Below are positions 26,061-57,200 of a stretch of DNA of 64,000 bases, piece by piece; the first letter of the stretch is position 1, and every line of letters starts with the position of its first letter. The notes under the pieces are model-generated. The model made no database searches and was not told the DNA's origin. It saw only the letters and a list, made by a program, of their open reading frames with translations. Made by a program: the position numbers and the translations under genes. Source of the stretch: Thermoplasmatota archaeon (GTDB taxonomy: Archaea; Thermoplasmatota; Penumbrarchaeia; Penumbrarchaeales; Penumbrarchaeaceae); NCBI GenBank assembly GCA_029762535.1, contig JARVGK010000001.1:32368-96367 (forward strand). Direction: 5' to 3'.

Positions 26061-29000
26061 GTGATAGATATCATGAAGGAAAAAATGCAAGGGAGCGCCA
26101 AGGCCATAGTATCTCTTTTCATGCTGGCTCTGCTGATCGTAATGCCATGGGGCATCACCGCGGATGCCAACGACCCTCAGCCGGCAGAGGTTCCGCCGAC
26201 AAGGGCCTGGCTCGACATCGCCATTGATGGGATCGAGAGGATCCAGAGCACTGTGTCGAACAATATCTATCCCGGTCAGAAGGTCGAATTGGCCGTACGC
26301 CTAGTCCATGATATCAGGCCGTATGTGAGCGATACCCCGATCACGAACTCCAATCCATTCACCGTGGTTATTGTCATCGACGATGACAAGGGGAACGTGT
26401 CGACAATGTACAAGCAGATCACCAGCATGCCTCTGACCTATACGGCAATGGATCCACAAACAGGCATGCCGAACCCTCTCTTCGTCTCATTCTTCTGGAC
26501 CGCTCCAGATAAGGCACCCCAGGGGTATTCATGGGCACAGATGAGCTATTCGGTCTATTCCACCATCACGGTCGATGACGACGACAAGTCCGACAATTTC
26601 AGGACGGGCTCGGCCATCAGGATCTCCGAACCCGACTTCCAGCCCCGGATCCATCAGGAGGACGAGACCAAACCTGGCGTCACCAGCAAGGTCCACGACG
26701 TCTCTCTCGGAGAGGCGGTGTTCCTTCCGTTCGACCTTTGGAACGAAGGTCCGGCAGTGGACATAATCGGCATAGAATACATGTCAATTCCCGAGGGTTG
26801 GGTTCCCTCGCCCTTCGAACCCATCGAGGTGTTCCCGAACAACTATCAGGAGATGAACCTCGCCCTTCTCGTTTCCCCCAACCCCGTTCTTGCCCAGCAC
26901 GACCTGACCTACGACCTTGTTGTCAGGCCTTATTCCACCTTCTTCAAGGAGGGCCCCTATAACATAGACCCGACCTACACGTTCAAGTTCAAGGTAAGTC
27001 TGGCGCCCGCATGCGTCATAGACCCTGCGACCCCCTCGATGATGCTGGTCCCAGGTATTAAGACCGACGTCCACTTCACTCTGAGGAACACCGGCAACGC
27101 CCGGGACACCTACACCCTTTCCTGGGCCCTGGACGAGAGGGCCAGCAAGGAATGGAGGGTCGATTTCAAATCAGGGATAGGCCAGCCTACCGTATCACCG
27201 GGCGAATCGACCCAGGTCACCGTTGGTGTCACGGTCCCCATAAACACGGCGAAGAACCAGAACGTTCAGCTTTTCATCAAGGCCGAATCGTCCAGAAGGC
27301 AGGGGATGATAACGACAAGTACACCCTGCGTGATATTCGCGGCCGAAAGATATGCCGCCGACATCGAACGTCAGACGGAGCCCCACCTGGTAGAGCCCGG
27401 AAGGGAGAACCGAATAACCTTCAACTTCACCAACATGGGCAACGACAAGGACCCCAACCAGGCCCTCAGGGTCCAGTCCGCTCCAAAGGGTTGGAAGGTG
27501 TTCATAGACCAGTCCCCCCTGAAAACGGGTAACGGGCTGGGCCCAAGGACCAGAACAAGGGTGACGATGACGATATTCGTGCCCGAGACCTCCACGACAT
27601 CATACAAATCATCCAGGCCTCCGTTCGTAATGGTACAGGCGGTGGGAGGGCCTTACCTGAACATACTCGATACCGAGCAGTTCTTCTTCGAGGTCCCTCT
27701 CAAGAACAGGGTCGGCCTCAGCTCGGACGATCCGATCAAGACGGGCTTCGTCGGTGGCCAGACCGAATTCATAGTTTATGTCCAGAACAAAGGCAACTGG
27801 GACGATACCTTCAACCTGACCACGGACTTCGAGTGGGCGGACCTTGAGATGGACCGAACGCCCCCCCTCTTCGCGAACGATTCCATCCCCGTCAGGATAG
27901 TCGTCAGGATCCCCTCTGACGCCGCAGCGGATACGAACCCGGACACGCCCAGGATCCTCGACGGATACAAGATACGCGTATTCGCCTACTCCCAGAACGA
28001 GACCCGAAAGGGAGCGACCCTGGTCAGCCTCGATCTGACCCTGAAGGTCGCCCCATTCTACAGCTTCGACATGGCGCTGGCACCCGGTGAGAGGCCACTC
28101 AGGTTCTCCACGGACCACGATCAGATCCGTGTCCTCAAGGTGAGGATTAGGAACACCGGGAACATAGCTGACCTGATACGCCTGGAATGGGAGGATAATC
28201 CCTTCTCATCCTGGATATTCCTGCAGAACGTTTACGTGGATGTGCCGTACAAGGACCATTTCGACGCATTGATCACAATAAGGCCCAAGGCCTTCACGGT
28301 CGCAGAGGCGCAGATCATCTCGATGAACCTGATCGGATACTCGCAGTACGATACCGAAAGGATACCGTTCAGATCGAACATATCTTTGGATCTCGAATTC
28401 TTCACGTTGATGTTCGAGATCAACCAACCCCGAATGAACAATCAGACCATTCAAGTGGCAGGTACCAGGGTCGAGCTCGATAAGAAGTACTCCTTCCAGG
28501 TGGAGATATCGAACATAGGCACGGAGGACCTCAACCCGATATACATGGACAGGCTGTTCATAGTGCTGTATGACGCAGGCTTCGAGGTTGACAGGTCGAA
28601 CATCACCTACCTCCTCAGGGGGGGCGAGAGGACGGCCTACTTCGTTTGGTATGCCTCCACACCGGGGCAGCACATACTCACCTTCGCCCTCGAGGGAGAG
28701 TTACCCATAAGCAACCGGGGAGTGAACGAGAAGCAGACGAGCCTCATCGTGAATTATACCGCGGGGCCCCCGGATCCTCCGCCCAACATTCCCGAACTCA
28801 TCGATTTCATGCCGCAGATTCTGCTGATGATCATATTCGGACTGGCCATATTCGTGTTCCTCTACATGTTCAACAAGATATTCATCTCGGCCATAGACAC
28901 GGGATACGACGAGGACGGGACGTACAGGCCTTGGGCGGTCAGGGAGAAGCTGAAAGAGGAGGACCAGCTGCAATCAGCGCCCGAGAGGCCCGCGCTGCCT

Positions 29001-42677: not shown

Positions 42678-44132
42678 ATGAGGCTAAGGTTGTTCAACAC
42701 CCGAAGCATGGAAAAGGAGGATTTCGTGCCACTCGAGGAGGGCTGCGTAAGGATGTACGTTTGCGGCCCTACCGTGTATGACAACTGTCACGTCGGACAT
42801 GCAAGGAGCTATGTGGCCTTCGATGTTCTGAGGAGTTATCTCTCGTACAACGGCCTGACCGTGACATACGTTCAGAACTTCACGGATGTGGACGACAAGA
42901 TCATCAACAGGGCGCGAGAGAGGGGCATCCCGCCTCTGGTATTGTCCGAGCAATACATCCAGGAATACTTCGAGGACATGGGCGCTCTGAACGTTCAGAG
43001 GGCGACCATACACCCGAAGGCCTCGGAAACGATCCCGGACATGATAAACATCATATCCTCTCTGATCGGGAAGGGTTACGCCTACGAGGTCAACGGCTCC
43101 GTGTATTTCGAGGTCGAGAAGGCCAAGGAGAGGTTCGGACAGCTCAGACATCAGTCCCTGGACGATATGAGGGACGGAGCAAGGATCGAGGTCGATGAGG
43201 AGAAGAGGAGCCCCAAGGACTTCGCACTTTGGAAAAGGGCGAAGGAAGGGGAGATCTCCTGGGATTCCCCCTGGGGCAGGGGCAGGCCAGGATGGCATAT
43301 CGAATGTTCGACGATGTCCACCAAATACCTGGGAGACACGATAGATATCCACGGCGGGGGGATGGACCTGGTGTTCCCGCATCACGAATCGGAGATCCTC
43401 CAGTCGGAATCTTACAGCGGACAACAGTTCGTCCGTTACTGGGTACACAACGGTTTCGTTCAGATAGACAGTGAGAAGATGTCCAAATCCCTGGGGAACT
43501 TCTTCACGATCAAGGACGTCCTGGAACGCTTCGAACCCATGGTGCTGAGGTTCTTCCTTCTCTATACTCATTACAGGTCTCCAATAGATTTCTCGGATCA
43601 GGCCTTAGAAGAGGCGGGAAGGGCTCTCGAAAGACTCAGGTCCATGTACGGTTATCTGAAGAAGGCCGTGGGATCGGTCGAGGAGGGCGTCACCCCCGAT
43701 CTGGGAGAACCGTCCGAAAAGGCCGTAAGGGCCGCGTTCGAAATAAAGAAAGCCTTCATGGAAGCTATGGACGACGATCTCAACACAAGGGTCGCCATTG
43801 TCCAGTTGTTCCGTCTCGATGACGAGGTGAAGGCGATGAGGTCGGAAGCCGATCTGGATAAGGCGAGCGCTCACATGCTCATGTCCCTGCTCGAGGAGCT
43901 CTCAGGCGTTCTGGGGCTTTCCTTCGATGTCAGGGAGGAGGCCAAGGAAGCGGATCCTGACATACTACGCTCGCTCATCGAACTTTTATTGGAGGTGAGG
44001 AACGATGCGAGGAAGAACAAGGACTGGAGAACAGCGGATCTGATCCGGGACAGGCTTGGTTCTTTGGGGGTAAGGATCGAGGACACTGGGGAGGGCACGT
44101 CCTTCACGATCTCGAAACGGGCCGCCAAATGA
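42678..44132 (+). CDS. cysS: cysteinyl-tRNA synthetase
   Basis: CGPTVYDNCHVGHARS (HIGH) and KMSKSLGN (KMSKS); 484 aa. Confidence 0.95.
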   Translation: MRLRLFNTRSMEKEDFVPLEEGCVRMYVCGPTVYDNCHVGHARSYVAFDVLRSYLSYNGLTVTYVQNFTDVDDKIINRARERGIPPLVLSEQYIQEYFEDMGALNVQRATIHPKASETIPDMINIISSLIGKGYAYEVNGSVYFEVEKAKERFGQLRHQSLDDMRDGARIEVDEEKRSPKDFALWKRAKEGEISWDSPWGRGRPGWHIECSTMSTKYLGDTIDIHGGGMDLVFPHHESEILQSESYSGQQFVRYWVHNGFVQIDSEKMSKSLGNFFTIKDVLERFEPMVLRFFLLYTHYRSPIDFSDQALEEAGRALERLRSMYGYLKKAVGSVEEGVTPDLGEPSEKAVRAAFEIKKAFMEAMDDDLNTRVAIVQLFRLDDEVKAMRSEADLDKASAHMLMSLLEELSGVLGLSFDVREEAKEADPDILRSLIELLLEVRNDARKNKDWRTADLIRDRLGSLGVRIEDTGEGTSFTISKRAAK

Positions 44133-44257: not shown

Positions 44258-47200
44258 ATGAAACTGGGAAACGCACGATCGGCAGCCGCCCTGGCCATTC
44301 TATTGCTAATGACCCTCCTGCCCGTTGGCCCCATGATATCGGGGGCGGGATCAGGGGTGTTTGAGGGGGATATCGAAGAGCAGGAGATCGCCGATCAGTT
44401 ATCCTCCAGGCTCGTTTCGATGGGTTTCAGACCGAGGCATCCATACCATGGTTCCAATTTCATACAGACCCCCTCTCCCGCGCCCGAAGGGGCCCGGATA
44501 CATCCTACCGGAACCGCATCTATCGAAATGCACTCCTCTTCAACAAGATACAGCTGGGAAAGTTACTATTCAGATGATATTCTGGACGTCTATGTGGATA
44601 CCAGCACATCCGGCGGAGGCTCCCTATCCTCTCAGGAGGAGACCTTGCTCGACGCGGTAATAACCGATTTCATAGATTACTCCTATCCCAGGGTCAAGGA
44701 CTGGTATGATCCGCTGAACAGGGTGTCCAGCGTGACCTTCTACATCCACCAGATCGACGGGAGGAGCGGCACGGGCGGTTATTATTCGCCGGGTACCGAC
44801 GAGTTCCACATCGACAGGGCCGACATGGACTGGGCAGGGGAGATCGCCGCCCACGAGTTCCAGCATTACATACACGACAAGTACGACCGCTACGAGAACC
44901 TGTGGATAAACGAGGGAATGTCCGATCATGCCGCCTTCCTCGTTTACGGATACGCCTCCGTCCTGTCGAGCCATCTCGCCGTATATTTCAACTACTATCC
45001 TTATACGACCCTGCCGATAGACGATTACAGTTTCTACAGGGATGGCACCACCAGATACTACGGCGTCGCCTTCGCCTATCAGCTATACATGACCCATCAT
45101 TACGGGGGCAAGAACTGGTCAAGGGCCCTTATCAGGTCCTCTCAGAGTGGCATCTCAGGCGTGAACTCGGCACTGTCAACTCTGGGGCACACGGACCGCT
45201 TCCAGGACACCTTCGAAAAATGGATGGTCGCCTCCAGGGTGAACGACAAGGACGCCGGCAACAACGGCGAATATTCCTATGCCACCAGAAACTATCCTTA
45301 CGGCACCCTCCAGACGAAACTTATGGGGTCCTACAGTGGGATCCCGGTCGAGTCGGACGGTCAGATAGGACCCTACGGGCCCCAGTCCTTCAGGTTCACC
45401 TCATCAGCTGGATCGGCCAACACCTACAGGCTGTCGGTGGAGGTATCCAAAGGGTCCCTGTCCTTCGCTGTATATCCTGAGGTCTCGACCTTACCGAGGC
45501 AGGTTACCCTCATAAACTCCGATAGTGGATCGGCCATCTTCGATCTCGATGGATGGGGGAAGGACTTTCAGGCGTTCCAGGTGATCGTCTCGACCACCTC
45601 TTTGGCCGACCTCTCCATCGAACTGGACATACTCGATCTCGAGCCGCCGGTCACGATGTTCGGGATCAATCCTCCCTTACCCGACGGGGATGACGGATGG
45701 TTTATCTCGAAACCGTTGATAACGATGGCGACCGAGTCCGGAGCCACTACCCACTACAGGATAGATCAAGGACCGGAGATGCTTTACAACCAGCCCGTTT
45801 ACCTCGATGACGGGGTTCACACGTTCTCATACTGGTCCATTGACAAGAAAGGCAACGTCGAGGAAGCCAGACATGTCGATCTGAAGATCGACACGGAGGT
45901 TCCGAAGACCTCCATAAGCATAGACCCTGCCGTGCCGGACGGATATTGGTATACGGCCACCCCAACAATAACCCTCGGGACCGATCATCCTGATTCTTCC
46001 ATACACTACAGATGGGACCAGGAGGATTTCGTTCTTTACAGTTCACCGATCAAGGCACCGGAGGGGGAACATCAGCTTTCATGGAGGGCTGTCGACCAGG
46101 CGGGCAACCAGGAAACTCCCGGGAACATGCTTTTCAAGGTCGATACTCTGAGACCGACCCTGTCCTATTCCATTTATCCCTCGGAACCCGACGGGATGAA
46201 CGGCTGGTACGCGTCGGCTCCAAGGATCACCCTCTCGGGCGATGCCCAGGATACGATATATTTCGCCATGGGAAGCAACGATTACTCCAGATACTCCTCG
46301 GGTATCGTGATGCCCGAAGGCATCACGAACTTCAGGGCCGTATCGATGGACCAGGCCGGCAACAGAGGTGAGGAGCTGTTGATGCAGTTCAAGGTGGACA
46401 CGATAAGGCCCAAGCTCACCTGGTCCATGGAGGGTTTCAACTACATGCTGGACAACGCGAGCCAATGGTTCAATGCCCGCCCCGTCATCGATATCCAGTC
46501 CTCCGAAGGCGGGACCAGCATCACTTATTTGCTCAACGATGAGGAAAGATCATATGATGGGCCGATCGTTATTGATGAAGGGCACAATGAGATATGGGTC
46601 CATGCACGGGACAAGGCCGGGAACGAGGCGGAACCGCTTTTCTTCATAATCAAGATCGATACTAAGGCCCCGGTGGTCCGAAGCGAACTGGGCCCACCCT
46701 CGGACAACGGTTGGTACAACGATATGAACATGAAGGTGGAGCTCGAACTGGTTGGAGAGGACGACAGGTCCTCGCCGGCGACCCTTCATTACGCCTGGGG
46801 CGATGCGGAATACAGGACCTACAGGGACGCGATCCCGGTACCCGAAGGCATCAACACGTTGAGATACTTCGCCAGGGACTCTGCAGGGAACGTCCTGAAG
46901 ATAGAGAGCATCGAGGTCAAGAAGGACACCATTCGCCCGGAAGCGGCCATGGAACTCGTCGATGTGACGAACCAGACGATACTGGTCGGCGGCGAGTTGA
47001 TAGTCGATATGAGCGGATCGAGGGACTCGACATCGAACCTCCAATTCCAGTTCGATCTCGGGGACGGGACCATCATCTCGTGGCGCAGCACGTCATCTGC
47101 CTCCCATAGTTATTCGGAAGCGGGGACATATACGATAAAGGGATGGGTCAAGGACAGCGCCGGGAACGTTGCCGAGATCGAGCGAACGATCAATGTGGTC

Positions 47201-47338
47201 GAAGAGGAGATCCCGGCCGTTGATCGGGAAACGGGAACCAACCCGTTACTCCTGGCAGGAGGGGCGGTCCTTCTGGTCCTGCTTCTGGTGATCATAGCCC
47301 TCCTGGCAGTCATCCTCGTGCGAAGGCGCAATGCCTGA
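44258..47338 (+). CDS. surface-anchored zinc metalloprotease (thermolysin-like HExxH + E) with tandem Ig-like repeats, a PKD domain and C-terminal TM
   Basis: Start MKLGNARSAAALAILLLMTLLPVGP (signal peptide) after AGGTGTTGAG; HEFQHYIHDKYDRYENLWINEGMSDHAAF parallels thermolysin HELTH...NEAISD; repeats YRIDQGPEMLYNQPVYLDDGVHTFSYWSIDKKGNVE / HYRWDQEDFVLYSSPIKAPEGEHQLSWRAVDQAGNQE / LHYAWGDAEYRTYRDAIPVPEGINTLRYFARDSAGNV; TM LLLAGGAVLLVLLLVIIALLAVILV. Confidence 0.7.
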   Translation: MKLGNARSAAALAILLLMTLLPVGPMISGAGSGVFEGDIEEQEIADQLSSRLVSMGFRPRHPYHGSNFIQTPSPAPEGARIHPTGTASIEMHSSSTRYSWESYYSDDILDVYVDTSTSGGGSLSSQEETLLDAVITDFIDYSYPRVKDWYDPLNRVSSVTFYIHQIDGRSGTGGYYSPGTDEFHIDRADMDWAGEIAAHEFQHYIHDKYDRYENLWINEGMSDHAAFLVYGYASVLSSHLAVYFNYYPYTTLPIDDYSFYRDGTTRYYGVAFAYQLYMTHHYGGKNWSRALIRSSQSGISGVNSALSTLGHTDRFQDTFEKWMVASRVNDKDAGNNGEYSYATRNYPYGTLQTKLMGSYSGIPVESDGQIGPYGPQSFRFTSSAGSANTYRLSVEVSKGSLSFAVYPEVSTLPRQVTLINSDSGSAIFDLDGWGKDFQAFQVIVSTTSLADLSIELDILDLEPPVTMFGINPPLPDGDDGWFISKPLITMATESGATTHYRIDQGPEMLYNQPVYLDDGVHTFSYWSIDKKGNVEEARHVDLKIDTEVPKTSISIDPAVPDGYWYTATPTITLGTDHPDSSIHYRWDQEDFVLYSSPIKAPEGEHQLSWRAVDQAGNQETPGNMLFKVDTLRPTLSYSIYPSEPDGMNGWYASAPRITLSGDAQDTIYFAMGSNDYSRYSSGIVMPEGITNFRAVSMDQAGNRGEELLMQFKVDTIRPKLTWSMEGFNYMLDNASQWFNARPVIDIQSSEGGTSITYLLNDEERSYDGPIVIDEGHNEIWVHARDKAGNEAEPLFFIIKIDTKAPVVRSELGPPSDNGWYNDMNMKVELELVGEDDRSSPATLHYAWGDAEYRTYRDAIPVPEGINTLRYFARDSAGNVLKIESIEVKKDTIRPEAAMELVDVTNQTILVGGELIVDMSGSRDSTSNLQFQFDLGDGTIISWRSTSSASHSYSEAGTYTIKGWVKDSAGNVAEIERTINVVEEEIPAVDRETGTNPLLLAGGAVLLVLLLVIIALLAVILVRRRNA
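45650..46960 (+). repeat. about five tandem ~85-aa Ig-like (chitobiase-C/Big-like) domain repeats inside the metalloprotease gene
   Basis: Recurring Y..W.....Y..P(I/V)...EG.H.(L/F).(W/Y)...D.AGN.E units; approximate boundaries. Confidence 0.45.
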
Positions 47339-47466: not shown

Positions 47467-47476
47467 TTTTATATAA
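47467..47476 (+). promoter_or_regulatory. TATA box (ttttatataa) ~65 bp upstream of the giant surface-protein gene
   Basis: Sole strong AT-rich octamer in the 200-bp spacer. Confidence 0.35.
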
Positions 47477-47538
47477 CACAAAGTGGATTCATCAGAGCCC
47501 AATCCTATAGAGGTTGCTTTGGCTTGCTTGGGTCATAG

Positions 47539-50500
47539 GTGATTAATATGATCAAGGGGAAAGTATCGATAGTTATGGCCACATTATTTTTGACAATGGC
47601 GTCCTTCGGCGTCTTGAGCTTCGCTCCGGCGGGGGGCGTTCACGAGAGCGTGAGCGAGGATCCGGTCGTTCAGGGCGAGGTGGACAAGGCTTATTTCATA
47701 AGGAACGACGGCCAGTGGGACAGCCCGATGGAATATGTCGGTCAGACCTCGCTCGGGGTCATGGGGTTCTCCCCGGACGGCGTGTTCATGAACATAGTGG
47801 AGGAGGTCCTCGAGAAGGACGAGGAGGTGCATAGGTCTGGGCATATTCTCCAGTTCACCTTCGACGGCGGCTATCAGGTGCTGCCGCAGGGGGGCGGCAT
47901 GCTCGAAGGCCACATGAACTGGCTTATCGGTCCGGAAGAGGAATGGGTCACCGAGGTGCCCCTTTTCGATAGCGTCATATACGAGAACGTGTGGGACGGG
48001 ATCGACGTCCGATACACCTATGGCGAAAAGGGGTTGAAGTACGAGTTCGTACTCGCCCCGTTCGCGGATCCCTCCGATATCGCCGTGAGAGTGGAGGGTC
48101 AGAGGTCGCTCAAGTTGATGGACGGGAACCTCGTCATAGACGTGAAGGAGGGCCTGACCGTCACAGATAAGGACCTCGACATATGGTATGACGACGGGTC
48201 CTTCGAGAAGGTCAACGGAAGGATCGTTATCCTTGATGGGAACACTTATACCTTCAGGATGGACGGCTACGATCCCTCACGGGGACTCGTGATCGATCCG
48301 CTGTATTACTCCACCTTCCTCGGAGGATACGGGACGGATTACGGCTACAGCGTTGATGTGGACTCCAAGGGATACGCATATGTAGCTGGTTATACCAGTT
48401 ATTCCTCATCCGGTGAGTTTCCCACGACCACCGGCGCTTATCAATCATCCAGGGCCTCGACCTCTTCCGATGCCTACGTCACGAAGTTCAACTACGCCGG
48501 ATCCGAGCTGATCTATTCGACGTTCATTGGAGGATATGGAACTGATTATGCCTACGGCATCGACGTGGATTCCTCCGGGAACGCATATATCACGGGCTAC
48601 ACATACTACTCATCTTCTGGTATCTATCCAACGACCAGCGGGGCCTACCAGACCTCATTTACATATACAAGCTATCCCGAGATATTCGTGACCAAGCTGA
48701 ATTCGGCAGGTTCCTCCCTATCCTATTCAACATTGATTGGAGGAGCTTACTACGATTACGCTTACGACATTGCGGTGGACTCCTCAGGAAATGCGATCAT
48801 AACTGGCCGAACAGGATATTCATCCACATACACTCCCAGTTACGGGGAATATCCGACCACTTCAGGAGCGTACCAGACAAGCAGAGCAGGGACGAACTAC
48901 GAAGCTTTCGTCACGAAGTTCAACTCGGGAGGAAGCTCACTTCTCTATTCCACCTTCCTGGGAGGATGGGGTTCAGATTATGGATATGGTGTGGCTGTGA
49001 ACTCTTCCGGCGAGTTCGCTGTGGCAGGATACACCTCTTATTCCTCGTCAGGCGAGTTCCCAACCACCTCGGGAGCCTATCAGGCGAGCAGGGCAGGCAC
49101 ATCTATGGATGCATTCGTCACGGCCTTCTCCTCGAGCGGAAGCGTCATCTATTCCACCTTTTTAGGCGGCTGGGGCAGCGATTACGGAAGGGCCATTGAT
49201 TTCGACGCCGACGGAAGGGTGGTGGTCGGAGGTTACTCCTCATACTCCTCCTCCGGTGAGTTCCCGACGACCTCCGGGGCATATCAGACCTCGAGGAGCG
49301 GGACTAGTATGGACGCGTTCGTCACGAAGTTCAGCTACCACGGATCGTATCTGGTCTTCTCCACTTTCCTTGGCGGGTCCGGATCTGAATACGTAGATCA
49401 AAATTCTCTGATGGTAGGTGATAACGACAACATTTATTTCGCGGGCCGCACAGTATCGAGCGATTTCCCGACGGTCAATGCCTATCAGGGATCCATCGCA
49501 TATTCATCATACTACGATTGCTTCCTTGTGAACTTAACGAGCGATGGCTCCACCCTATCCTATTCGACATACTTCGGAGGCGGTTACTACGATTACGCAT
49601 ACGGCCTGGCAGTCGATAAGTACAACAACGCCTATGTCACCGGATATACCCGGTATTCATCCACGTATTCCACGACATACGGCGAGTTCCCGACGACATC
49701 CGGAGCCTATCAGACCAGCAGGGCCGGGGACAGCTACGAAGCCTTCCTCTTTAAATACGGGGAGAATTTCACCGATGACACAGCACCGGTCCTCGGTACG
49801 GACAGCTCGGATTCATCCGCCTATACTGGCCAGGATTTCACCTTCCAGATCGCGGTCACGGACAACGTCGGTGTAACTAAATTGCATGTGGAGTACTGGT
49901 TCGGAACAGGATCCCACACGAACGATTCGATCCCTCTACTGGAGCCTTACACCCATACGATAACGGTCCCGAACTCTCTGGACACGATGTACTATTTCTT
50001 CTCCGCGGCGGATTATCACGGCAACTGGGTGAAGGGATCCACTCAGAGCAGGTCCCCCATTGACGGATCGGGCCCCGAGTTCGCGGATATGTCCATAACT
50101 CCTGACCCGCCCACGACCGGTGACAGCGCGACGGTGATGGTGAACGTCACGGACAACGTTGCAGTCGATAACACGACGGTGATGATCCATTTCAGGGACC
50201 AGACGGACGCTTCTTACACTTCCGCATACATGACCCATGTATCGGCGGACCTGTACAGCTATACCAATACGATCGGGACATACTGGACCCGTGTATACTT
50301 CTATATTACCGCCGATGACACCGCCGGTAACAGCGGCTCCACGGCCATAATGTATCTCGACGTCGATGATAACGATCCCCCGACCTTCGTCAGCGATGGT
50401 TCGGATCCAGTCGCTTATACTGGAGATCCCTTCACTTTCAACATAACGATGAACGACAACGTCGGGATCGATTACGCATATGTGGAGTACTGGTTCGGGA

Positions 50501-53475
50501 CCGGATCCCACAACGTGAGGTCGCTGACCATATACGGGTCCGGCCTTGGCGATGACCAGAACGGTATGGCCACGATAACGATACCCTACTATTCCACCGA
50601 CAGCTTGAATTATTTCTACAACTTCAGGGACGCGGATGGGAACTGGTGGGCCTCCGGTCCCAGCGCAAACGTAACGGTCTCCGTTCTTGACAACAAGGCC
50701 CCGGACATAATCGACGTCCAGTGGTGGGACGCCTATACAGGGGACGCTTTCTATTTCTCTATCGAGCTCTACGACAACATCGACGGTTACGCCCTGAAGG
50801 AAGCCTATGCCCTGTGGTCCTATGCCGGGGACTGGGACAATTCCACGAACTCCACGCTCAGCTACAACAACGTCAACGACATGTGGGAGAGCAGTTCCTT
50901 CAATGTGAACCTCAACAGCCTTGACCCGATAACCTACTACGTGATCGCCTCCGATCAGGGCGGGAACTGGGTCGTTGACGGTATATACTATACTTACGTC
51001 TATGACAACAAGGATCCCAAGATAGTATCCGATAATTCCCAGGCCGTGGCGACGACGGGGGACGAGTTCGAGTTCAACGTCACCGTGACCGATAATATCG
51101 AGATATCATACGTCGAGGCCTACTACTACTACACCGATATGAGCGACTCGGGTTTCGTATGGCTGATGGACGACGGCTCAGGGAATTTCGCTGGGACCTT
51201 CGAGGTCAAGCACACTTTGACCTCGTTCGAGTACGAGTTCTGGGCCTATGACACCTCATGGAACTGGGCATCCAGCCCGACTCCTGGATCGAGGACACCG
51301 GTGGACAACGATGTACCGGATATCTTCAACGACATGAGCCCGTTAAGCGGCGAGACCGGCAAGACTTACAAGTTCAGGGTGATGATCACCGACAACATCG
51401 CTCTGATGCCGGGTTCTATGGAGGTCAGCTACCGCATAGGTTCCGGAACCACGACCGATACCTCCCTTACGAGGATCGCAGGCAACATCTACGGGGCGGA
51501 AGTGACCCTTCCAGGCCAGGCGGGAATGCTGTATTACACATTCTCCGCGACCGATACCTCCGGCAACGTCCACACGACGGATGAGGTTCAGGTTCAGATC
51601 CTTGACATCACCCCTCCGGTACTGGGAACACCCGCGTTCTCGATGGATGCCTATACCGGAGATGACTACGTTGTTACGATAACGGCAACGGACGATGTAG
51701 GGGTCACTTACGTCAGGATGCGCTACTATTTCGGTGACGAGATGCCCTCCACGGTCCCTTATGTCGAGGGGGTCGCAAGCGGGAGCACTTACACACTGAC
51801 CGTCCCGGTGCCCCACATGCTGACTACCCTTCACTTCTCGATAGTGGCCTCCGATGCCCAGGGCAACCTTCAGACGCTTCCGTTCGTGACCGTCGAGGTC
51901 CACGACAACGACCTGCCCCAGCTGGATGAGGACCGCAGCTCCACCGAAGCGGTTACCGGCGGGGATCTCCTCTTCAACATCACCGTTAGCGACAATATCG
52001 GGGTTTCCCATGTCAACGTCCACTATACCCTTCCGGACGGTACGATACACATAGACGAGATGTACAGGGAAGGTGACATATTCACTCTGCATATACCTAT
52101 CTCGGACAATTACAGAGGCGATCTGACATACGCCTTCGAGATCGTCGATACCTCCATGAACGCGTTCATCACCGATGAGGTCACCGTTACCGTCATGGAT
52201 GACAAGCTACCCGTGGCGGACTTCAATACACCTGAGCGCGTCATCCAGGGGGTCGAAGTGATCTTCGACGGATCGATATCCACCGATAATGTAGGTATAA
52301 TCAACTGGACATGGACCATGGAGGATATGATGTACTACGGAGCAGAAATATCGCACGTGTTCGAGGAGGCGGGTACGTTCATGGTGACCCTGACCGTCTT
52401 GGACGATCCATCACATCCGGCCGTATCCGTCGAGAAGGAAATATTCGTAATAGACAGCGAGAACCCTGTACCCCTCGCAGAGGTCCCATCGGTCCTTGGC
52501 AACCATGAGATGCTCCAGATCGACGGCAGCGGGTCAACGGACAATGTGGGAATAGACCGCTACATGTGGCAGGTCCATCTCCCGGACGGTTCCAGGTACG
52601 ACAAGTCCGGTCCGACGATGAGCCATGACATGGCCGGTGTCCTGGGCGTTGTCAGGGTCATGCTAACGGTGTTCGATGTCGTTGGCAATTCTGGTTCAGA
52701 AATGTATGAGATCAATGTTATGGACATCTTGCCCCCGACCGTGATACCCCCGGCCGATGTGGAGGAATACGAGGGTTCCGCCTTGAGGTTCACGGACCGT
52801 GATTCATACGACAACGTTGGGATCGTCGAATGGCATTGGAACATAACGTGGGACATGGGATATACCGTCCTCAGCGGCAGGACCGTGACATATTACTTCG
52901 ATACCGCAGGGAAGTACAACGTCACTTTGACCCTTACGGATTCGGGGGGCAACGTGGCCTCCTCGTATTTCATAGTGACCATCAACGAGAAGGACGAGGA
53001 CTTCGACTCCGATGGCGATGGGATGCCCGACCAGTGGGAGGACATGTATGGTCTGAACAAGTTCCTTGACGACGCGGACCGCGACCCGGACATGGACGGA
53101 TTGACCAACCTCGAGGAATACAGGATAGGAACGGACCCGCTCGACCCCGATACGGACGGCGATGGGCTTCCTGACGGCTGGGAGGTGAAATATGGCCTCG
53201 ATCCTCTGGACCCCTCCGATGCAGATCAGGATATGGACGGCGATGGCGATACGAACCTGGAGGAGTACCTTGACGGATCCCACCGGGATCCGACCGTGAA
53301 GGATGCCGAGGTGAAGGAGGAGGACAATACCGTCCTCATCATTCTCCTGCTCGTCGTCTTCGCGATCCTTGCGATACTGATCCTCGTGGGGGTCGTGATG
53401 TTCATGACGAAGGTCCCGACCGTCGAGGAGAAGTTCCCCGAGAACGATTTCCCGCATCTATACAACAAGGAATGA
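47539..53475 (+). CDS. giant (1978 aa) cell-surface protein: signal peptide, SBBP-type beta-propeller repeats, ~9 tandem ~100-aa Ig-like domains, three PKD domains, TSP3-like Ca-binding repeats, C-terminal TM
   Basis: YSTFLGGYGTDYGYSVDVDSKGYAYVAGYTSYSSSGEFPTTTGAYQ repeated ~8 times (SBBP); recurring ...TDNVG(V/I)... domains; PKD (FDGSISTDNVGIINWTW, IDGSGSTDNVGI, FTDRDSYDNVGIVEWHW); DSDGDGMPDQWE / [14 protein letters not shown] / DQDMDGDGDTNLEEY; TM LIILLLVVFAILAILILVGVVMFM. Confidence 0.8.
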   Translation: MINMIKGKVSIVMATLFLTMASFGVLSFAPAGGVHESVSEDPVVQGEVDKAYFIRNDGQWDSPMEYVGQTSLGVMGFSPDGVFMNIVEEVLEKDEEVHRSGHILQFTFDGGYQVLPQGGGMLEGHMNWLIGPEEEWVTEVPLFDSVIYENVWDGIDVRYTYGEKGLKYEFVLAPFADPSDIAVRVEGQRSLKLMDGNLVIDVKEGLTVTDKDLDIWYDDGSFEKVNGRIVILDGNTYTFRMDGYDPSRGLVIDPLYYSTFLGGYGTDYGYSVDVDSKGYAYVAGYTSYSSSGEFPTTTGAYQSSRASTSSDAYVTKFNYAGSELIYSTFIGGYGTDYAYGIDVDSSGNAYITGYTYYSSSGIYPTTSGAYQTSFTYTSYPEIFVTKLNSAGSSLSYSTLIGGAYYDYAYDIAVDSSGNAIITGRTGYSSTYTPSYGEYPTTSGAYQTSRAGTNYEAFVTKFNSGGSSLLYSTFLGGWGSDYGYGVAVNSSGEFAVAGYTSYSSSGEFPTTSGAYQASRAGTSMDAFVTAFSSSGSVIYSTFLGGWGSDYGRAIDFDADGRVVVGGYSSYSSSGEFPTTSGAYQTSRSGTSMDAFVTKFSYHGSYLVFSTFLGGSGSEYVDQNSLMVGDNDNIYFAGRTVSSDFPTVNAYQGSIAYSSYYDCFLVNLTSDGSTLSYSTYFGGGYYDYAYGLAVDKYNNAYVTGYTRYSSTYSTTYGEFPTTSGAYQTSRAGDSYEAFLFKYGENFTDDTAPVLGTDSSDSSAYTGQDFTFQIAVTDNVGVTKLHVEYWFGTGSHTNDSIPLLEPYTHTITVPNSLDTMYYFFSAADYHGNWVKGSTQSRSPIDGSGPEFADMSITPDPPTTGDSATVMVNVTDNVAVDNTTVMIHFRDQTDASYTSAYMTHVSADLYSYTNTIGTYWTRVYFYITADDTAGNSGSTAIMYLDVDDNDPPTFVSDGSDPVAYTGDPFTFNITMNDNVGIDYAYVEYWFGTGSHNVRSLTIYGSGLGDDQNGMATITIPYYSTDSLNYFYNFRDADGNWWASGPSANVTVSVLDNKAPDIIDVQWWDAYTGDAFYFSIELYDNIDGYALKEAYALWSYAGDWDNSTNSTLSYNNVNDMWESSSFNVNLNSLDPITYYVIASDQGGNWVVDGIYYTYVYDNKDPKIVSDNSQAVATTGDEFEFNVTVTDNIEISYVEAYYYYTDMSDSGFVWLMDDGSGNFAGTFEVKHTLTSFEYEFWAYDTSWNWASSPTPGSRTPVDNDVPDIFNDMSPLSGETGKTYKFRVMITDNIALMPGSMEVSYRIGSGTTTDTSLTRIAGNIYGAEVTLPGQAGMLYYTFSATDTSGNVHTTDEVQVQILDITPPVLGTPAFSMDAYTGDDYVVTITATDDVGVTYVRMRYYFGDEMPSTVPYVEGVASGSTYTLTVPVPHMLTTLHFSIVASDAQGNLQTLPFVTVEVHDNDLPQLDEDRSSTEAVTGGDLLFNITVSDNIGVSHVNVHYTLPDGTIHIDEMYREGDIFTLHIPISDNYRGDLTYAFEIVDTSMNAFITDEVTVTVMDDKLPVADFNTPERVIQGVEVIFDGSISTDNVGIINWTWTMEDMMYYGAEISHVFEEAGTFMVTLTVLDDPSHPAVSVEKEIFVIDSENPVPLAEVPSVLGNHEMLQIDGSGSTDNVGIDRYMWQVHLPDGSRYDKSGPTMSHDMAGVLGVVRVMLTVFDVVGNSGSEMYEINVMDILPPTVIPPADVEEYEGSALRFTDRDSYDNVGIVEWHWNITWDMGYTVLSGRTVTYYFDTAGKYNVTLTLTDSGGNVASSYFIVTINEKDEDFDSDGDGMPDQWEDMYGLNKFLDDADRDPDMDGLTNLEEYRIGTDPLDPDTDGDGLPDGWEVKYGLDPLDPSDADQDMDGDGDTNLEEYLDGSHRDPTVKDAEVKEEDNTVLIILLLVVFAILAILILVGVVMFMTKVPTVEEKFPENDFPHLYNKE
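48300..49775 (+). repeat. about eight tandem SBBP (beta-propeller) repeats of ~60-65 aa
   Basis: Units beginning YSTF(L/I)GG(Y/W)G(T/S)DY(A/G)Y...D(S/A)SGN(A)Y(V/I)TGYT.YSSS.(E)FPTT(S)GAYQ(T)S; approximate boundaries from residue offsets. Confidence 0.6.
49790..52200 (+). repeat. about nine tandem ~95-105-aa extracellular domain repeats (Ig/cadherin-like) each carrying a (T/S)DN(V/I)(G/A) motif
   Basis: e.g. AYTGQDFTFQIAVTDNVGVTKLHVEYWFG, AYTGDPFTFNITMNDNVGIDYAYVEYWFG, ATTGDEFEFNVTVTDNIEISYVEAYYYY, GETGKTYKFRVMITDNIALMPGSMEVSY, AYTGDDYVVTITATDDVGVTYVRMRYYFG, AVTGGDLLFNITVSDNIGVSHVNVHY. Confidence 0.5.
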
Positions 53476-54208: not shown

Positions 54209-57200
54209 TCACTGCTCTTCCACCAGGAACTCCGCACCACATCCAGGGCACGTCCTGCTTCCGACCGGAACCTCGATGGAGCATTTGGGGCATTGATATA
54301 TCTCGGATTCGAAGGATGCTCCGCATCCAGGACAGGTCGCCGCGTTCATCTCCACGGCATTACCGCACGCCTCGCAGAGGAATGTCCTCCCATCGGTGCT
54401 ACCTTCGCCTTCCACCTTCTTTACCGAGCCCATCGCCCTCTCTAGAGCTCCTTTCAGGTCCTCATCCTCCTCTGGGTTCAGGTTCGACAGCTGTTTTATG
54501 GCCGAGTTGACCGCGTCGAGGTTCATACCTCCGTTCTCGGTAGAGGCCTTGATCAGTGTCTCGACGATCTCCCGCATCGGTACGATATCGGTATTCACCG
54601 ATGTGAGAAGCCGGTCCCTCAACGATACCTCCAGCTCCAGGCCCCTTCTTTTCAGCAGCTCTGCGAGCAAAGGTCCTTTGATATCTTCAGATAATGGCCT
54701 GATGTCCACGACCAGGCCGCTTTCCAGCCGGGATCGCAACTTTTCGGAGATGACGGTTATCTCGCCGGGCGGTCTCGATGATGTCATAACTATCTGCTTG
54801 TTGGAGTTCAGCATTAATCCGAACATATTCTCGAGGATATCTTCATCGGTCGAGCTCATGATGTCATGGACGTCATCGAGGAGGATAACATCGTATCCGT
54901 TAAGTTCATTCTTTTCAATATCATCGCCCCCCAGGACCGAATTCAGCTCTTCGATGGAAAGCAGTCCGATGCTGATGCCAGAGTCCTTGGCCAGTATGCC
55001 GGTCCGGATCGAGCTCAAGAGGTGGGTCTTGCCGGAACCGGTGTTCCCGTAGATGAAGAGAGGGTTGTATGCCTTCGACGGGTTATCGGCCACGCCTTGA
55101 GCGGCTTTCACCGCGAATCTGTTCGAGTTACCCACGATCAGATTATCGAAGGTCATCGAACCTGTCGCTTCCCATCCTTCATCGGCCCCGGATGGTTCTT
55201 CAGATGGCCCATCCTCGCTCTTGGCCTCGATCTCGGCTTTTGGCGTCTCCTGCGGCATCCGGAATCCGGTAGAGCCCATGAACTTCTTGAACATCTGTAT
55301 CTCTTTTTCGAAGTTGTTCATCTCCAGCTCGAGTATGGACATGTCCTGGTCCAGGTATTGCTTGATCTTTTCTGCTGCCTGGAATCCCGAGGATATATGA
55401 TCATCGATCCTCTTGATGATCTCGCTCCTCTTCCTCCTGTCCTCCTCTATCATCGCCTCCAGTCCTTCGAGTGCGAGGCTTATCTCATCGACGAGGCCAG
55501 GATCGTTCAGTTTGAACTCGATGTCCTCGGCCTCCTTCTTGAAATGTTTCAGATCGAGGGAATCGAACCTCTCCTGGAAGCCCTCGAGTTTGATTATCTG
55601 CTTTAGCGTCTCCTCGAATTCGGCATCAAGGTCCTCGATGGATGCATCCAATTTCTTCTCCAGGGATCTGACGTTGTAGCCCGCATCCTTCCATATCTTG
55701 ACCCTGTCCCGTATCTTTTCCCGCTTGGTGTGATTGCTCTCAATGAGGTTCTTCAGGTCCTCGAAATGCTCCAGCGCTCCCTGATGGTCCCCGATGTCCT
55801 TGAGATGCTTCTTAAGCTCCTCGATGCCCGGATGAAGCCAGCTGCTTTCGACCCTGTCCCATTTCTCGATGAGCGAGGAGGCCTCCTTCAATCGCGAGAT
55901 CCTTGTCTCCATGTCCTCTATGGCATCCTCGATGTGTGGCGCGGGTGTCTCTATGAGGTCCTTGAGGCTATCTATACGATATCCTTCCTTTTTCAGTTCC
56001 TCCAGCCTTTTCTTCAGGTCGATCCTTATAGCCGTATCCGAGCGAACCCTTTCAACGAGGTCCGCGAGGTTCTTCCTCGCCCTATCGATCTCGAAGGGGT
56101 CCTGTAATAGTGACCGAAGCTCATCCGCATCTCCCTGGAAGAATCTGGTATTGATCGATGAGAGCTCCTTGAGCATCTCCCGGCAGACGGTGATGTTCTT
56201 CTGCATCTCATCGTGAACTATGCTGAAGGCGGGGAGATCGTCATCAATGACCTCCTCCACCCTCTTCACGATGAAACCGTCGGACCTCCATCTCTCGAGA
56301 TCGTTCTTGACCTTCTCTCGGGTCTCCTCCCTCCTGCCGATGTCATCTTTCAAGCGATCCATCGAATCCTGGGCCTTATCCAACTGTGTCGGGTCTATCA
56401 GTATGGCTCTCAGCTCCTCGAATCTGCCATCCAGCCATCTGCTGTCCATACCGGATAGTTCATCGGACAGTTCAGAGAGCCTCTGCACCCTCTTTTCCAG
56501 GTCCTCCAGGGCGCCTCTCAGCTCGGATATGGGTCGCTCGAACATGGGCTCGATCGATACCACTTCATACCCTCTTCCGGCGATATCATCCACTTTCTTC
56601 CTTAACTCGTCCCTTTCCTGATCGATCCGGAGTATCCTCTCCTGTATGTCGTTCAGGCGGGATTCGTATCGATCGAGATCGAATGGATCTTTCATCGAGG
56701 CTTTCAGCTCGTCGATATCCTTGGTAAGATCGCGACGATCGGTATTATCGAGCGTTGCCCCGATCTCTTTGATCCTTGCGACATTGTTCTTCAGCAACTC
56801 CATCATTTCGCGGAGGTCCTTGGCCCTCTGGTCTATGGAATCCTCGATCCTCTTGATGCTGAAGCCGCCCTTCTCGAACGTTTTCGCTTCCTCGAGGATC
56901 TTTCGTTTCTCCGCCCTCTCCGCCTCCATCGTCTCTTTCAAGGACGCGAGGGAAGATCCCGCGGCAGGGATCTCGTTGGGATCGTTCAAAAGGAACTCTA
57001 TCTGAGCGATATTCTTGGAGAAACCCTTTGCGTCCTTTTCCTTGGAAATTGCGTCCAGCTCCTCCCTGTAATCCTTCAGCTGCTGAATGGAGTCCATGAA
57101 GTTCGCCATAGAATTCCAGGCCGAATCCAGATCATCATCGAGTTTCTGCTCCACACTCTCAGTGTTGAAGCCCTCCTCCTTCCAGAGTTTCACCCACTTG

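Follow-up and report, generated by a model that had tools for sequence, protein, structure and literature searches.

The contig JARVGK010000001.1 derives from metagenome assemblies and its host is an uncultured Thermoplasmatota archaeon. The 64-kb stretch of it analysed here (the window, to whose positions all coordinates refer) carries one very large gene at 47539..53475 on the forward strand. We consider it rather likely that the product of this gene is a Ca2+-stabilised, stalked surface protein that binds ligands, that is, a receptor or adhesin whose targets would be particles, polymers or other cells. Transcribed from its own promoter, such a protein would be exported by means of an N-terminal signal peptide and retained by one C-terminal helix. 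Its distal head, composed of a DUF7948 domain and a seven-bladed SBBP propeller of the CylK type, would be held some tens of nanometres off the cell by a stalk of eleven beta-sandwich domains, eight immunoglobulin (Ig)-like ones followed by three PKD domains, with four Ca2+-type TSP3 loops at the membrane and a short cytoplasmic tail beyond it. Ca2+ bound to Asp/Asn clusters and to the TSP3 loops would stiffen the stalk, and cooperation with a neighbouring membrane-anchored HExxH protease is possible.

A previous sequence-only reading had placed a signal peptide, an N-domain, SBBP blades, TDNVG-containing modules, PKD domains, TSP3-like loops, a transmembrane (TM) helix and a tail in this order, and Pfam annotation together with hydropathy found all of these elements in place (Table 1), with SBBP, PKD_4/PKD and TSP3_bac all above their gathering scores. 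Some of the counts had to be corrected when the arrays were delineated by iterating single-unit hidden Markov models (HMMs) against the protein itself. The blades number seven instead of about eight, and the TDNVG modules eight instead of about nine; nine copies of the strict TDN[VI] motif are present, three of which fall within PKD domains. The anticipated three PKD domains and three to four TSP3 loops were recovered as three (own HMM) and four (motif scan), and the five repeat classes are better described as four repeat classes and a single-copy DUF7948 domain.

The assignment to the cell surface held up, being consistent with the signal-like N-terminus, the single C-terminal TM helix, a pI of 4.05, the presence of only one Cys and the all-beta, extracellular-type domains. 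The N-terminal segment looks like a signal peptide, a likeness drawn from hydropathy and not from a dedicated cleavage-site prediction. Taken with the acidic all-beta ectodomain, the one far-C-terminal TM helix and the short tail, it implies a type-I topology, in which the head would be the most distal part and the TSP3 loops would sit closest to the membrane. The tail carries a motif of the form FPExx[FY]PHLYxK(E), which occurs once in the window, is present in the orthologues P0002, P0003 and P0005-P0009, is missing from P0010 and P0012, and is thus retained by most orthologues down to about 40% identity; it may act as a docking or sorting signal. An anchor of the archaeosortase PGF-CTERM type was considered and rejected, as the C-terminus (...EEDNTVLIILLL...MTKVPTVEEKFPENDFPHLYNKE) has no PGF motif and no sorting-signal model of NCBIfam matched at E ≤ 0.1. 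N-x-S/T sequons are not enriched (15 observed vs 16 +/- 3.6 expected).

In the head, the DUF7948 model is covered from end to end (profile positions 1-214 of 214), and the N-x-G-Q motif near the start of the domain is invariant across phyla. Two AlphaFold2 (AF2) models were obtained, with overall confidence (pLDDT) of 84.9 and 87.3, the second of which covers aa 1355-1975. The DUF7948 region is modelled with pLDDT mostly at 80-90, and it is followed by seven four-stranded blades with pLDDT above 90. No relative of DUF7948 was found in the PDB by sequence, nor with a profile of DUF7948 alone at E ≤ 5. Searched against the PDB as a single sequence, the head likewise gave no match, and CylK was reached only with a profile. 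Both the fold and the profile similarity of the propeller to CylK's C-terminal domain are clearly above those to generic propellers, and we conclude that the propeller is homologous to that of CylK, its sole solved relative.

CylK (7RON, 7FH6-8) is the Friedel-Crafts alkylating enzyme of cylindrocyclophane biosynthesis, a soluble two-domain cyanobacterial protein in which the loops within blades are unusually long and every blade junction has a Ca2+ site (PMC8916777). Its active site lies between the propeller's top side and a Ca2+ beta-roll N-domain, with the catalytic Arg105 contributed by the N-domain and Tyr473 located at the interface (PMC8916777). In contrast, the protein described here has DUF7948 in place of the beta-roll and carries its propeller on a membrane-anchored stalk. 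Membership of the alkyl-halide-utilising enzymes CylK/BrtB was therefore rejected: there is no beta-roll, and the N-domain is DUF7948, without a sequence relative in the PDB. In our reading of the profile alignment, the column of Tyr473 corresponds to a position that recurs as Y/M/S in every blade, and is thus uninformative on catalysis. The closest likeness is to the DUF7948 and SBBP repeat proteins of Thermoplasmatota, Acidobacteriota, Anaerolineae and Asgard metagenome-assembled genomes, which have the same head, a full-length DUF7948 followed by seven blades; identity over the head is 79% to the closest orthologue (P0002) and 31-57% to more distant relatives. What follows the head varies in these proteins and includes Ig, fn3, cohesin/dockerin and leucine-rich repeat parts or a TIGR03437 tail, whereas the layout of eight Ig-like modules, three PKD domains, four TSP3 loops and a TM helix is specific to one orthologue group of Thermoplasmatota.

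The stalk begins with the eight Ig-like modules, each of which shows the elements T-G, [TN]D[ND][VI], D..GN and a D/N-rich linker with a terminal P; seven positions (P3, T16, G17, D28, D78, N82 and D95) are invariant in all eight. In the AF2 model of aa 1355-1975, modules 7 and 8 and the three PKD domains form beta-sandwiches with pLDDT above 90, followed by a TSP3 region of loops and short helices and by the TM helix. A Foldseek search with the stalk fragment returned multi-domain Ig-like chains, the top-ranked match being a fragment of the grappling-hook fibre protein GhpA (E 2.1e-17). On the basis of the model and these matches, the TDNVG modules are identified as Ig-like sandwiches. The DUF4625 family (PF15418) matched them weakly, reaching 33.1 bits vs 27 only when summed, with no single stretch passing and profile positions 9-56 of 131 covered. 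The PKD domains contain the motif of the Ig-like modules, and the two kinds of domain are probably related: the Ig-like profile detects PKD1 at 1e-8 and PKD2 at 1e-10, with PKD3 marginal at 3e-3. Since the profile-profile comparison of the Ig-like modules with the PKD motif regions is only suggestive (hhalign, E 2.6e-4, probability 42%), we do not name these modules PKD domains.

With eleven sandwiches at roughly 4-4.5 nm each, the stalk would measure about 45-50 nm. A comparable arrangement is found in GhpA of Aureispira (9FLW, 9FLY), a protein that serves to catch prey, where a string of beta-sandwiches likewise projects a distal functional end. The likeness is one of fold only, at 14% identity, and GhpA is a secreted bacterial protein whereas the present one is archaeal and TM-anchored. 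The TSP3 region adjoins the membrane at aa 1820-1905. Its paired D-x-D-x-D-G-x-P-D-x-W-E and D-x-D-x-D-G-L-T-N-x-E-E-Y loops are the feature held in common with bacterial TSP3 surface proteins (PF18884; Myxococcus CglD and MtsD, the Amuc_1099 family), and the likeness to these proteins is limited to the short Asp-rich repeats. Membership of the MtsD/CglD equivalogs was accordingly rejected (41.5 vs 800 and 26.3 vs 400), the TSP3 region alone being matched. The motif itself is widespread, occurring in Verrucomicrobiota, Lentisphaerota, Asgard archaea and Thermoplasmata, and a search of genome contigs with it yielded one full-length relative (L009) among matches that were for the most part unrelated TSP3 proteins of many phyla.

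Ca2+ probably binds to the Asp/Asn clusters and the TSP3 loops and stiffens the stalk, as judged by analogy with solved domains. Among 15 relatives, Asp and Asn account for most of the invariant stalk columns and occupy three sites in each module; the Asp residues of the TSP3 loops are invariant as well. The best sequence matches of the PKD domains in the PDB are the PKD-like domains of the clostridial collagenases ColG and ColH (4AQO, 4JRW/4TN9, 2Y72), whose DxDGxIxxYxW Ca2+ stretch coincides with [ST]D[ND]VGI..W.W here; in the collagenases the domain is a linker in a secreted enzyme, whereas here it is part of the stalk of an archaeal membrane protein. A single Ca2+, chelated in the collagenase domain by the DxDG loop, an Asn of the linker and another Asp, aligns the linker between domains (PMC4356367). 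Here, a D and an N in the loop are invariant, as is an Asp in both the F-G loop and the linker, but the register reads D-N-V-G and not D-x-D-G. The invariant D/N positions, the coincidence of the motif with the collagenase Ca2+ loop and the rank of those domains as best PDB matches make Ca2+ stiffening a reasonable proposal, and we also counted the blade-junction Ca2+ of CylK toward its plausibility (PMC8916777).

Repeat arrays such as these had raised the concern that the assembly might have collapsed and that the true length of the gene might differ. Such an artefact, in which arrays were collapsed or mis-joined, is suggested by the metagenomic origin of the contig and by the existence of a much longer positional orthologue (P0003, 3,454 aa); on the other hand, several observations speak against it. 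Tandem Repeats Finder (TRF, period limit 500) detected no tandem array in the gene. In codon-threaded alignments, DNA identity averaged 0.57 between blades (maximum 0.66), 0.43 between Ig-like modules (maximum 0.53) and 0.42 between PKD units (maximum 0.45), while exact direct repeats reach at most 19 nt and near-identical stretches at most 33 nt. Moreover, eight full-length orthologues from other samples (P0002, P0005-P0010 and P0012; 1,936-2,020 aa, 41-84% identity) all have seven blades, eight modules and three PKD domains, including the 84%-identical one from an independent assembly, which has identical unit counts. An assembly artefact is thus extremely unlikely, and the concern was not borne out.

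The comparison of copy numbers among relatives, suggested by the same reading, gave a mixed picture. In the eight orthologues the number of units is constant, and in most cases module i best matches module i of the orthologue (44-49% identity on the diagonal vs 30-33% off it). This per-module orthology indicates that the array predates these lineages and that its members have been conserved individually; together with the identical unit counts at 41-84% identity, it points to functional constraint on the structure. Change in copy number does occur, as P0003 (GCA_964445525.1, L089 10152-13300) has about 23 Ig-like modules. The additional ones consist of four to five copies of a three-module unit of ~870 bp with 64-80% DNA identity, which lies beyond the period limit of TRF and was detected by a separate repeat search. 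The longer stalk of P0003 is an old tandem expansion in one lineage; copy number can thus vary, but over evolutionary time.

Immediately upstream of the large gene lies a gene for a protein of ~1,030 aa, which had been called a metalloprotease. This designation is largely borne out. The HEFQH-(14 residues)-NEG motif is kept in every orthologue that covers the site, and the protein is 27% identical to HELQH...WINEGLSE proteins with an InhA-like MAM domain, which also make up three of the five relatives returned by a word-indexed search. Its ~470-aa N-domain matched no Pfam model, peptidase models included, even at E ≤ 1, Pfam recognising only the Ig-type domains that follow (Big_13/CHB_HEX_C-like repeats and one PKD domain, before a C-terminal TM helix), and the match to NCBIfam MXAN_6640_HExxH is weak (23.7 bits vs a cut-off of 140). 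We consider "putative gluzincin metalloprotease" a fair description. The listed start of this gene at 44129 overlaps the end of the gene for cysteinyl-tRNA synthetase (CysRS) and precedes the signal-like segment MKLGNARSAAALAILLL; the likely start is 44258, where this segment begins, and the L002 orthologue is annotated with 1,026 aa.

Co-expression of the two proteins as a surface complex had also been envisaged, and here the evidence is less favourable. The protease-like gene and the large gene are adjacent in all seven orthologous loci. In two of these, CysRS and the ~1,030-aa gene are separated by one or two additional genes; the latter is followed directly by the large gene in every locus. 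However, the gene order of the whole region is the same in these loci: CDC48 (-), a 214-aa open reading frame (ORF) without Pfam match (-), a DnaJ-domain protein (-), CysRS (+), the ~1,030-aa protein (+), the large gene (+), thiamin pyrophosphokinase (+), a 1,246-aa protein (-), an RNB-domain nuclease (-) and formyltetrahydrofolate synthetase (+). Since the CysRS-thiamin pyrophosphokinase-RNB neighbourhood is syntenic as a whole, adjacency alone says little. The spacer between the two genes (209 bp here, 209-291 bp in the orthologues) contains an element resembling a B recognition element (BRE) followed by a TATA box; ACAAA and the T/A-rich TATA element are aligned in six orthologous loci. From its consensus and conservation, a separate promoter for the large gene is very likely, so that co-transcription with the protease gene is not required. 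Some 30 nt beyond the TATA box, TAG[AG]GGT is conserved in these six loci though the surrounding spacer has diverged, with L004 carrying G as its fourth letter; this sequence may be a leader element or indicate where the transcript begins.

Paralogues provide a further comparison. In the genome of P0003, the paralogue P0035 (DUF7948-SBBP-Ig, 1,594 aa; L091 2852-11785) stands 126 bp downstream of a gene for a 1,340-aa Peptidase_C25 gingipain-type surface protein, forming a second, non-homologous pairing of protease and propeller. Only one of the four paralogues has such a protease neighbour; two are found with FG-GAP/ASPIC and two with MacB/FtsX permease neighbours. The link to proteases across paralogues is thus suggestive at best, and this pairing together with the HExxH neighbour in 7/7 loci gives weak support for a connection with proteolysis.

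Several observations weigh against a Ca2+-stabilised ligand-binding protein. The DUF7948-SBBP family has no functionally tested member, so that a ligand-binding head is proposed by analogy with other distal propellers, and CylK, the one propeller relative with a solved structure, is an enzyme. In the Ca2+ loop DxDG of PKD domains, the second Asp is not kept as such, being replaced in the D-N-V-G register, and Ca2+ binding is therefore not assured. Three of the four paralogues are without a protease neighbour. Finally, adhesins usually vary in the number of their stalk modules; a number that is fixed across deep orthologues is unusual for an adhesin and fits a structural spacer equally well. 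The protein could hence be an envelope component, forming an S-layer-like canopy or spacer of fixed length on a wall-less cell, with lateral contacts between heads and a stalk that determines how wide a pseudo-periplasm is. The presence of one positional orthologue within a conserved neighbourhood of the core genome, the strict module number with positional orthology and the near-consensus, conserved BRE/TATA promoter would agree with such a role, as would the C-terminal TM anchor and the acidic, Cys-poor composition seen in many archaeal envelope proteins, and the Haloferax S-layer protein (7ptp) is found among the fold matches of the stalk, at rank 36. Nevertheless, the sequons are not enriched, as noted above, no S-layer model of Pfam or NCBIfam matched (S-layer proteins being diverse), the ~23 modules of P0003 instead of eight argue against a strict ruler, and the same genomes hold several paralogues with stalks of other lengths. 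We therefore regard this role as fairly unlikely.

Alternatively, and as a refinement of the receptor proposal, the head might bind detrital protein or particles and pass them to the upstream HExxH protease, the two forming a dedicated unit for harvesting protein outside the cell. The two genes remain neighbours even in loci where insertions separate CysRS from the protease gene, both proteins have a C-terminal TM anchor and Ig-like stalks, and the position of P0035 downstream of the unrelated Peptidase_C25 protease is in line with this. As the syntenic region may have carried the adjacency along by inheritance and not selection, as the large gene has a promoter of its own, as the other three paralogues have non-protease neighbours and as the activity of the neighbour is deduced from a motif and weak similarity only, we find a substrate-capture partnership doubtful. 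Distinctly unlikely is the stronger proposal that protease and propeller protein make up a conserved two-gene unit for extracellular harvesting in wall-less sediment Thermoplasmatota, in which the head captures such material at a fixed distance from the membrane and the protease digests it; if true, such a unit would have arisen twice, with an HExxH protease and with a Peptidase_C25 gingipain-like one, and would give a first function to a head module of >41,000 protein clusters. Decidedly improbable, in our view, is a surface-displayed enzyme in which the N-domain caps the propeller's top side and forms an active site at the interface, as in CylK. The invariance of N-x-G-Q across phyla would suit an active site and the relationship to CylK leaves a small chance for it, whereas the unrelated all-beta DUF7948 stands where CylK has its beta-roll with Arg105, and a counterpart of the Tyr473 column is present in each blade. 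A stalked receptor or adhesin thus remains the reading that we favour.

The gene itself is real and, as had been stated, the largest in the window: the ORF at 47539..53475 is uninterrupted over 1,978 codons from GTG, and the runner-up has 1,246 aa. The length of 1,978 aa is most likely an overestimate, the start being ATG 47548 and not GTG 47539. This preference rests on the location of the GTG inside a Shine-Dalgarno (SD)-like AGGTGA, on the alignment of the ATG and of the SD core GGTG[AG], at equal distance, in six orthologous loci, and on the database record. An exact-sequence search matched the ATG-started product of 1,975 aa on a Logan contig of SRR24067139 and in NCBI, where the identical protein is deposited as "PKD domain-containing protein", whereas the GTG-started version gave no match. 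Amino acid numbering throughout is from ATG 47548. In P0009 (GCA_016928095.1, L008 about 7905), the deposited start seems to be placed too far downstream, since a conserved GGTGA-N5-ATG and a signal-like segment precede it in alignment with the starts of the other orthologues.

Table 1. Features of the large gene and its upstream region (positions in the window; E values and bit scores from the searches described in the text)
Feature	Position	Strand	Description and basis
Putative gluzincin metalloprotease, membrane-anchored (upstream neighbour)	44258..47338	+	HEFQH 44852-44866, NEGMSD 44909-44926; Big_13-like repeats, one PKD, C-terminal TM helix
BRE/TATA-like element ACAAAGTTTTATATAA	47461..47476	+	BRE-like ACAAAG, then TATA box TTTTATATAA (47467-47476); about 72 nt before ATG
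Candidate leader element TAGAGGT (TAG[AG]GGT)	47508..47514	+	About 30 nt after TATA; 6/7 positions invariant in six loci
SD-like AGGTGA	47537..47542	+	5 nt before ATG 47548; contains GTG 47539
Coding sequence	47548..53475	+	1,975 aa + stop; 217 kDa, pI 4.05, one Cys
Signal-peptide-like N-terminus	47548..47637	+	MIKGK, hydrophobic core aa 5-27, APAGG; hydropathy; low-confidence helix aa 5-19 in AF2 model
DUF7948 (PF25778), aa 50-252	47695..48303	+	All-beta, invariant N-x-G-Q near start; Pfam 134.8 bits vs 27, E 5.7e-39
Seven SBBP blades (PF06739), aa 255-742	48310..49773	+	~70 aa each; Pfam 64.7 bits vs 20.5; own HMM
Eight Ig-like beta-sandwich modules, aa 745-1553	49780..52206	+	~100 aa each; iterated HMM, E 1e-23 to 1e-36
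Three PKD domains, aa 1553-1820	52204..53007	+	PKD_4 (PF18911) 70.9 bits vs 27, E 9.7e-20; PKD (PF00801) 36.2 vs 23.5, E 6.2e-9; own HMM
Four Asp-rich TSP3 loops	53005..53283	+	D-x-D-x-D-G-x-x-D/N at aa 1820, 1846, 1868, 1893; TSP3_bac (PF18884) 36.1 bits vs 25, 2 stretches; motif scan
Single TM helix, aa 1929-1953	53332..53406	+	Hydropathy peak 3.8; helix in AF2 model aa 1928-1953 (fragment residues 574-599)
Predicted cytoplasmic tail, aa 1954-1975	53407..53472	+	22 aa with motif FPENDFPHLYNKE

Other genes of the window also deserve mention. The 1,246-aa protein (54209-57949, -) has a long SMC/Rad50-like coiled-coil N-part, a bacterial DnaA/Hda-type AAA+ domain (TIGR00362 E 3.4e-44; PF00308 E 2.2e-34) and C-terminal double zinc ribbons, a combination that is unusual in an archaeon. 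Its counterpart retains Bac_DnaA in L002, L003 and L089, and is a protein of 908-933 aa without Pfam match in L004, L006 and L008. This region of the genome is rich in surface proteins. Two more of ~1,050 aa each are encoded on the forward strand, one at 26061-29201 with NPCBM_assoc/CARDB/Ig_VWA7 Ig-type domains and a long Pro/Gln/Ala-rich C-terminal tail, the other at 30323-33496 with CARDB/PKD domains and a faint signal of Zn-dependent phospholipase C.

The profile of DUF7948 alone matched 48,844 cluster representatives at E ≤ 0.001 and 41,382 at E ≤ 1e-10 (1.84 billion proteins, 50% clustering), and matches of the whole protein were found in Thermoplasmatota, Asgard archaea, Acidobacteriota, Chloroflexota, Actinomycetota and others, where the C-terminal extensions take many forms. 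We found no functional study in the literature on SBBP, DUF7948 and Thermoplasmatota surface proteins. The protein is therefore an ordinary, stably built member of a very large and functionally blank family, and an identical, automatically annotated protein is already deposited. The individual gene matters little, as mosaic surface proteins of SBBP, PKD and TSP3 parts are common in uncultured archaea and bacteria, whereas its DUF7948-SBBP head is among the larger uncharacterised extracellular modules of environmental prokaryotes. For an initial structural or binding study of this module, the orthologue group provides a single-copy example that is clean and well modelled. In addition, the strict conservation of seven blades, eight modules and three PKD domains illustrates that a surface gene rich in repeats need be neither unstable nor mis-assembled.

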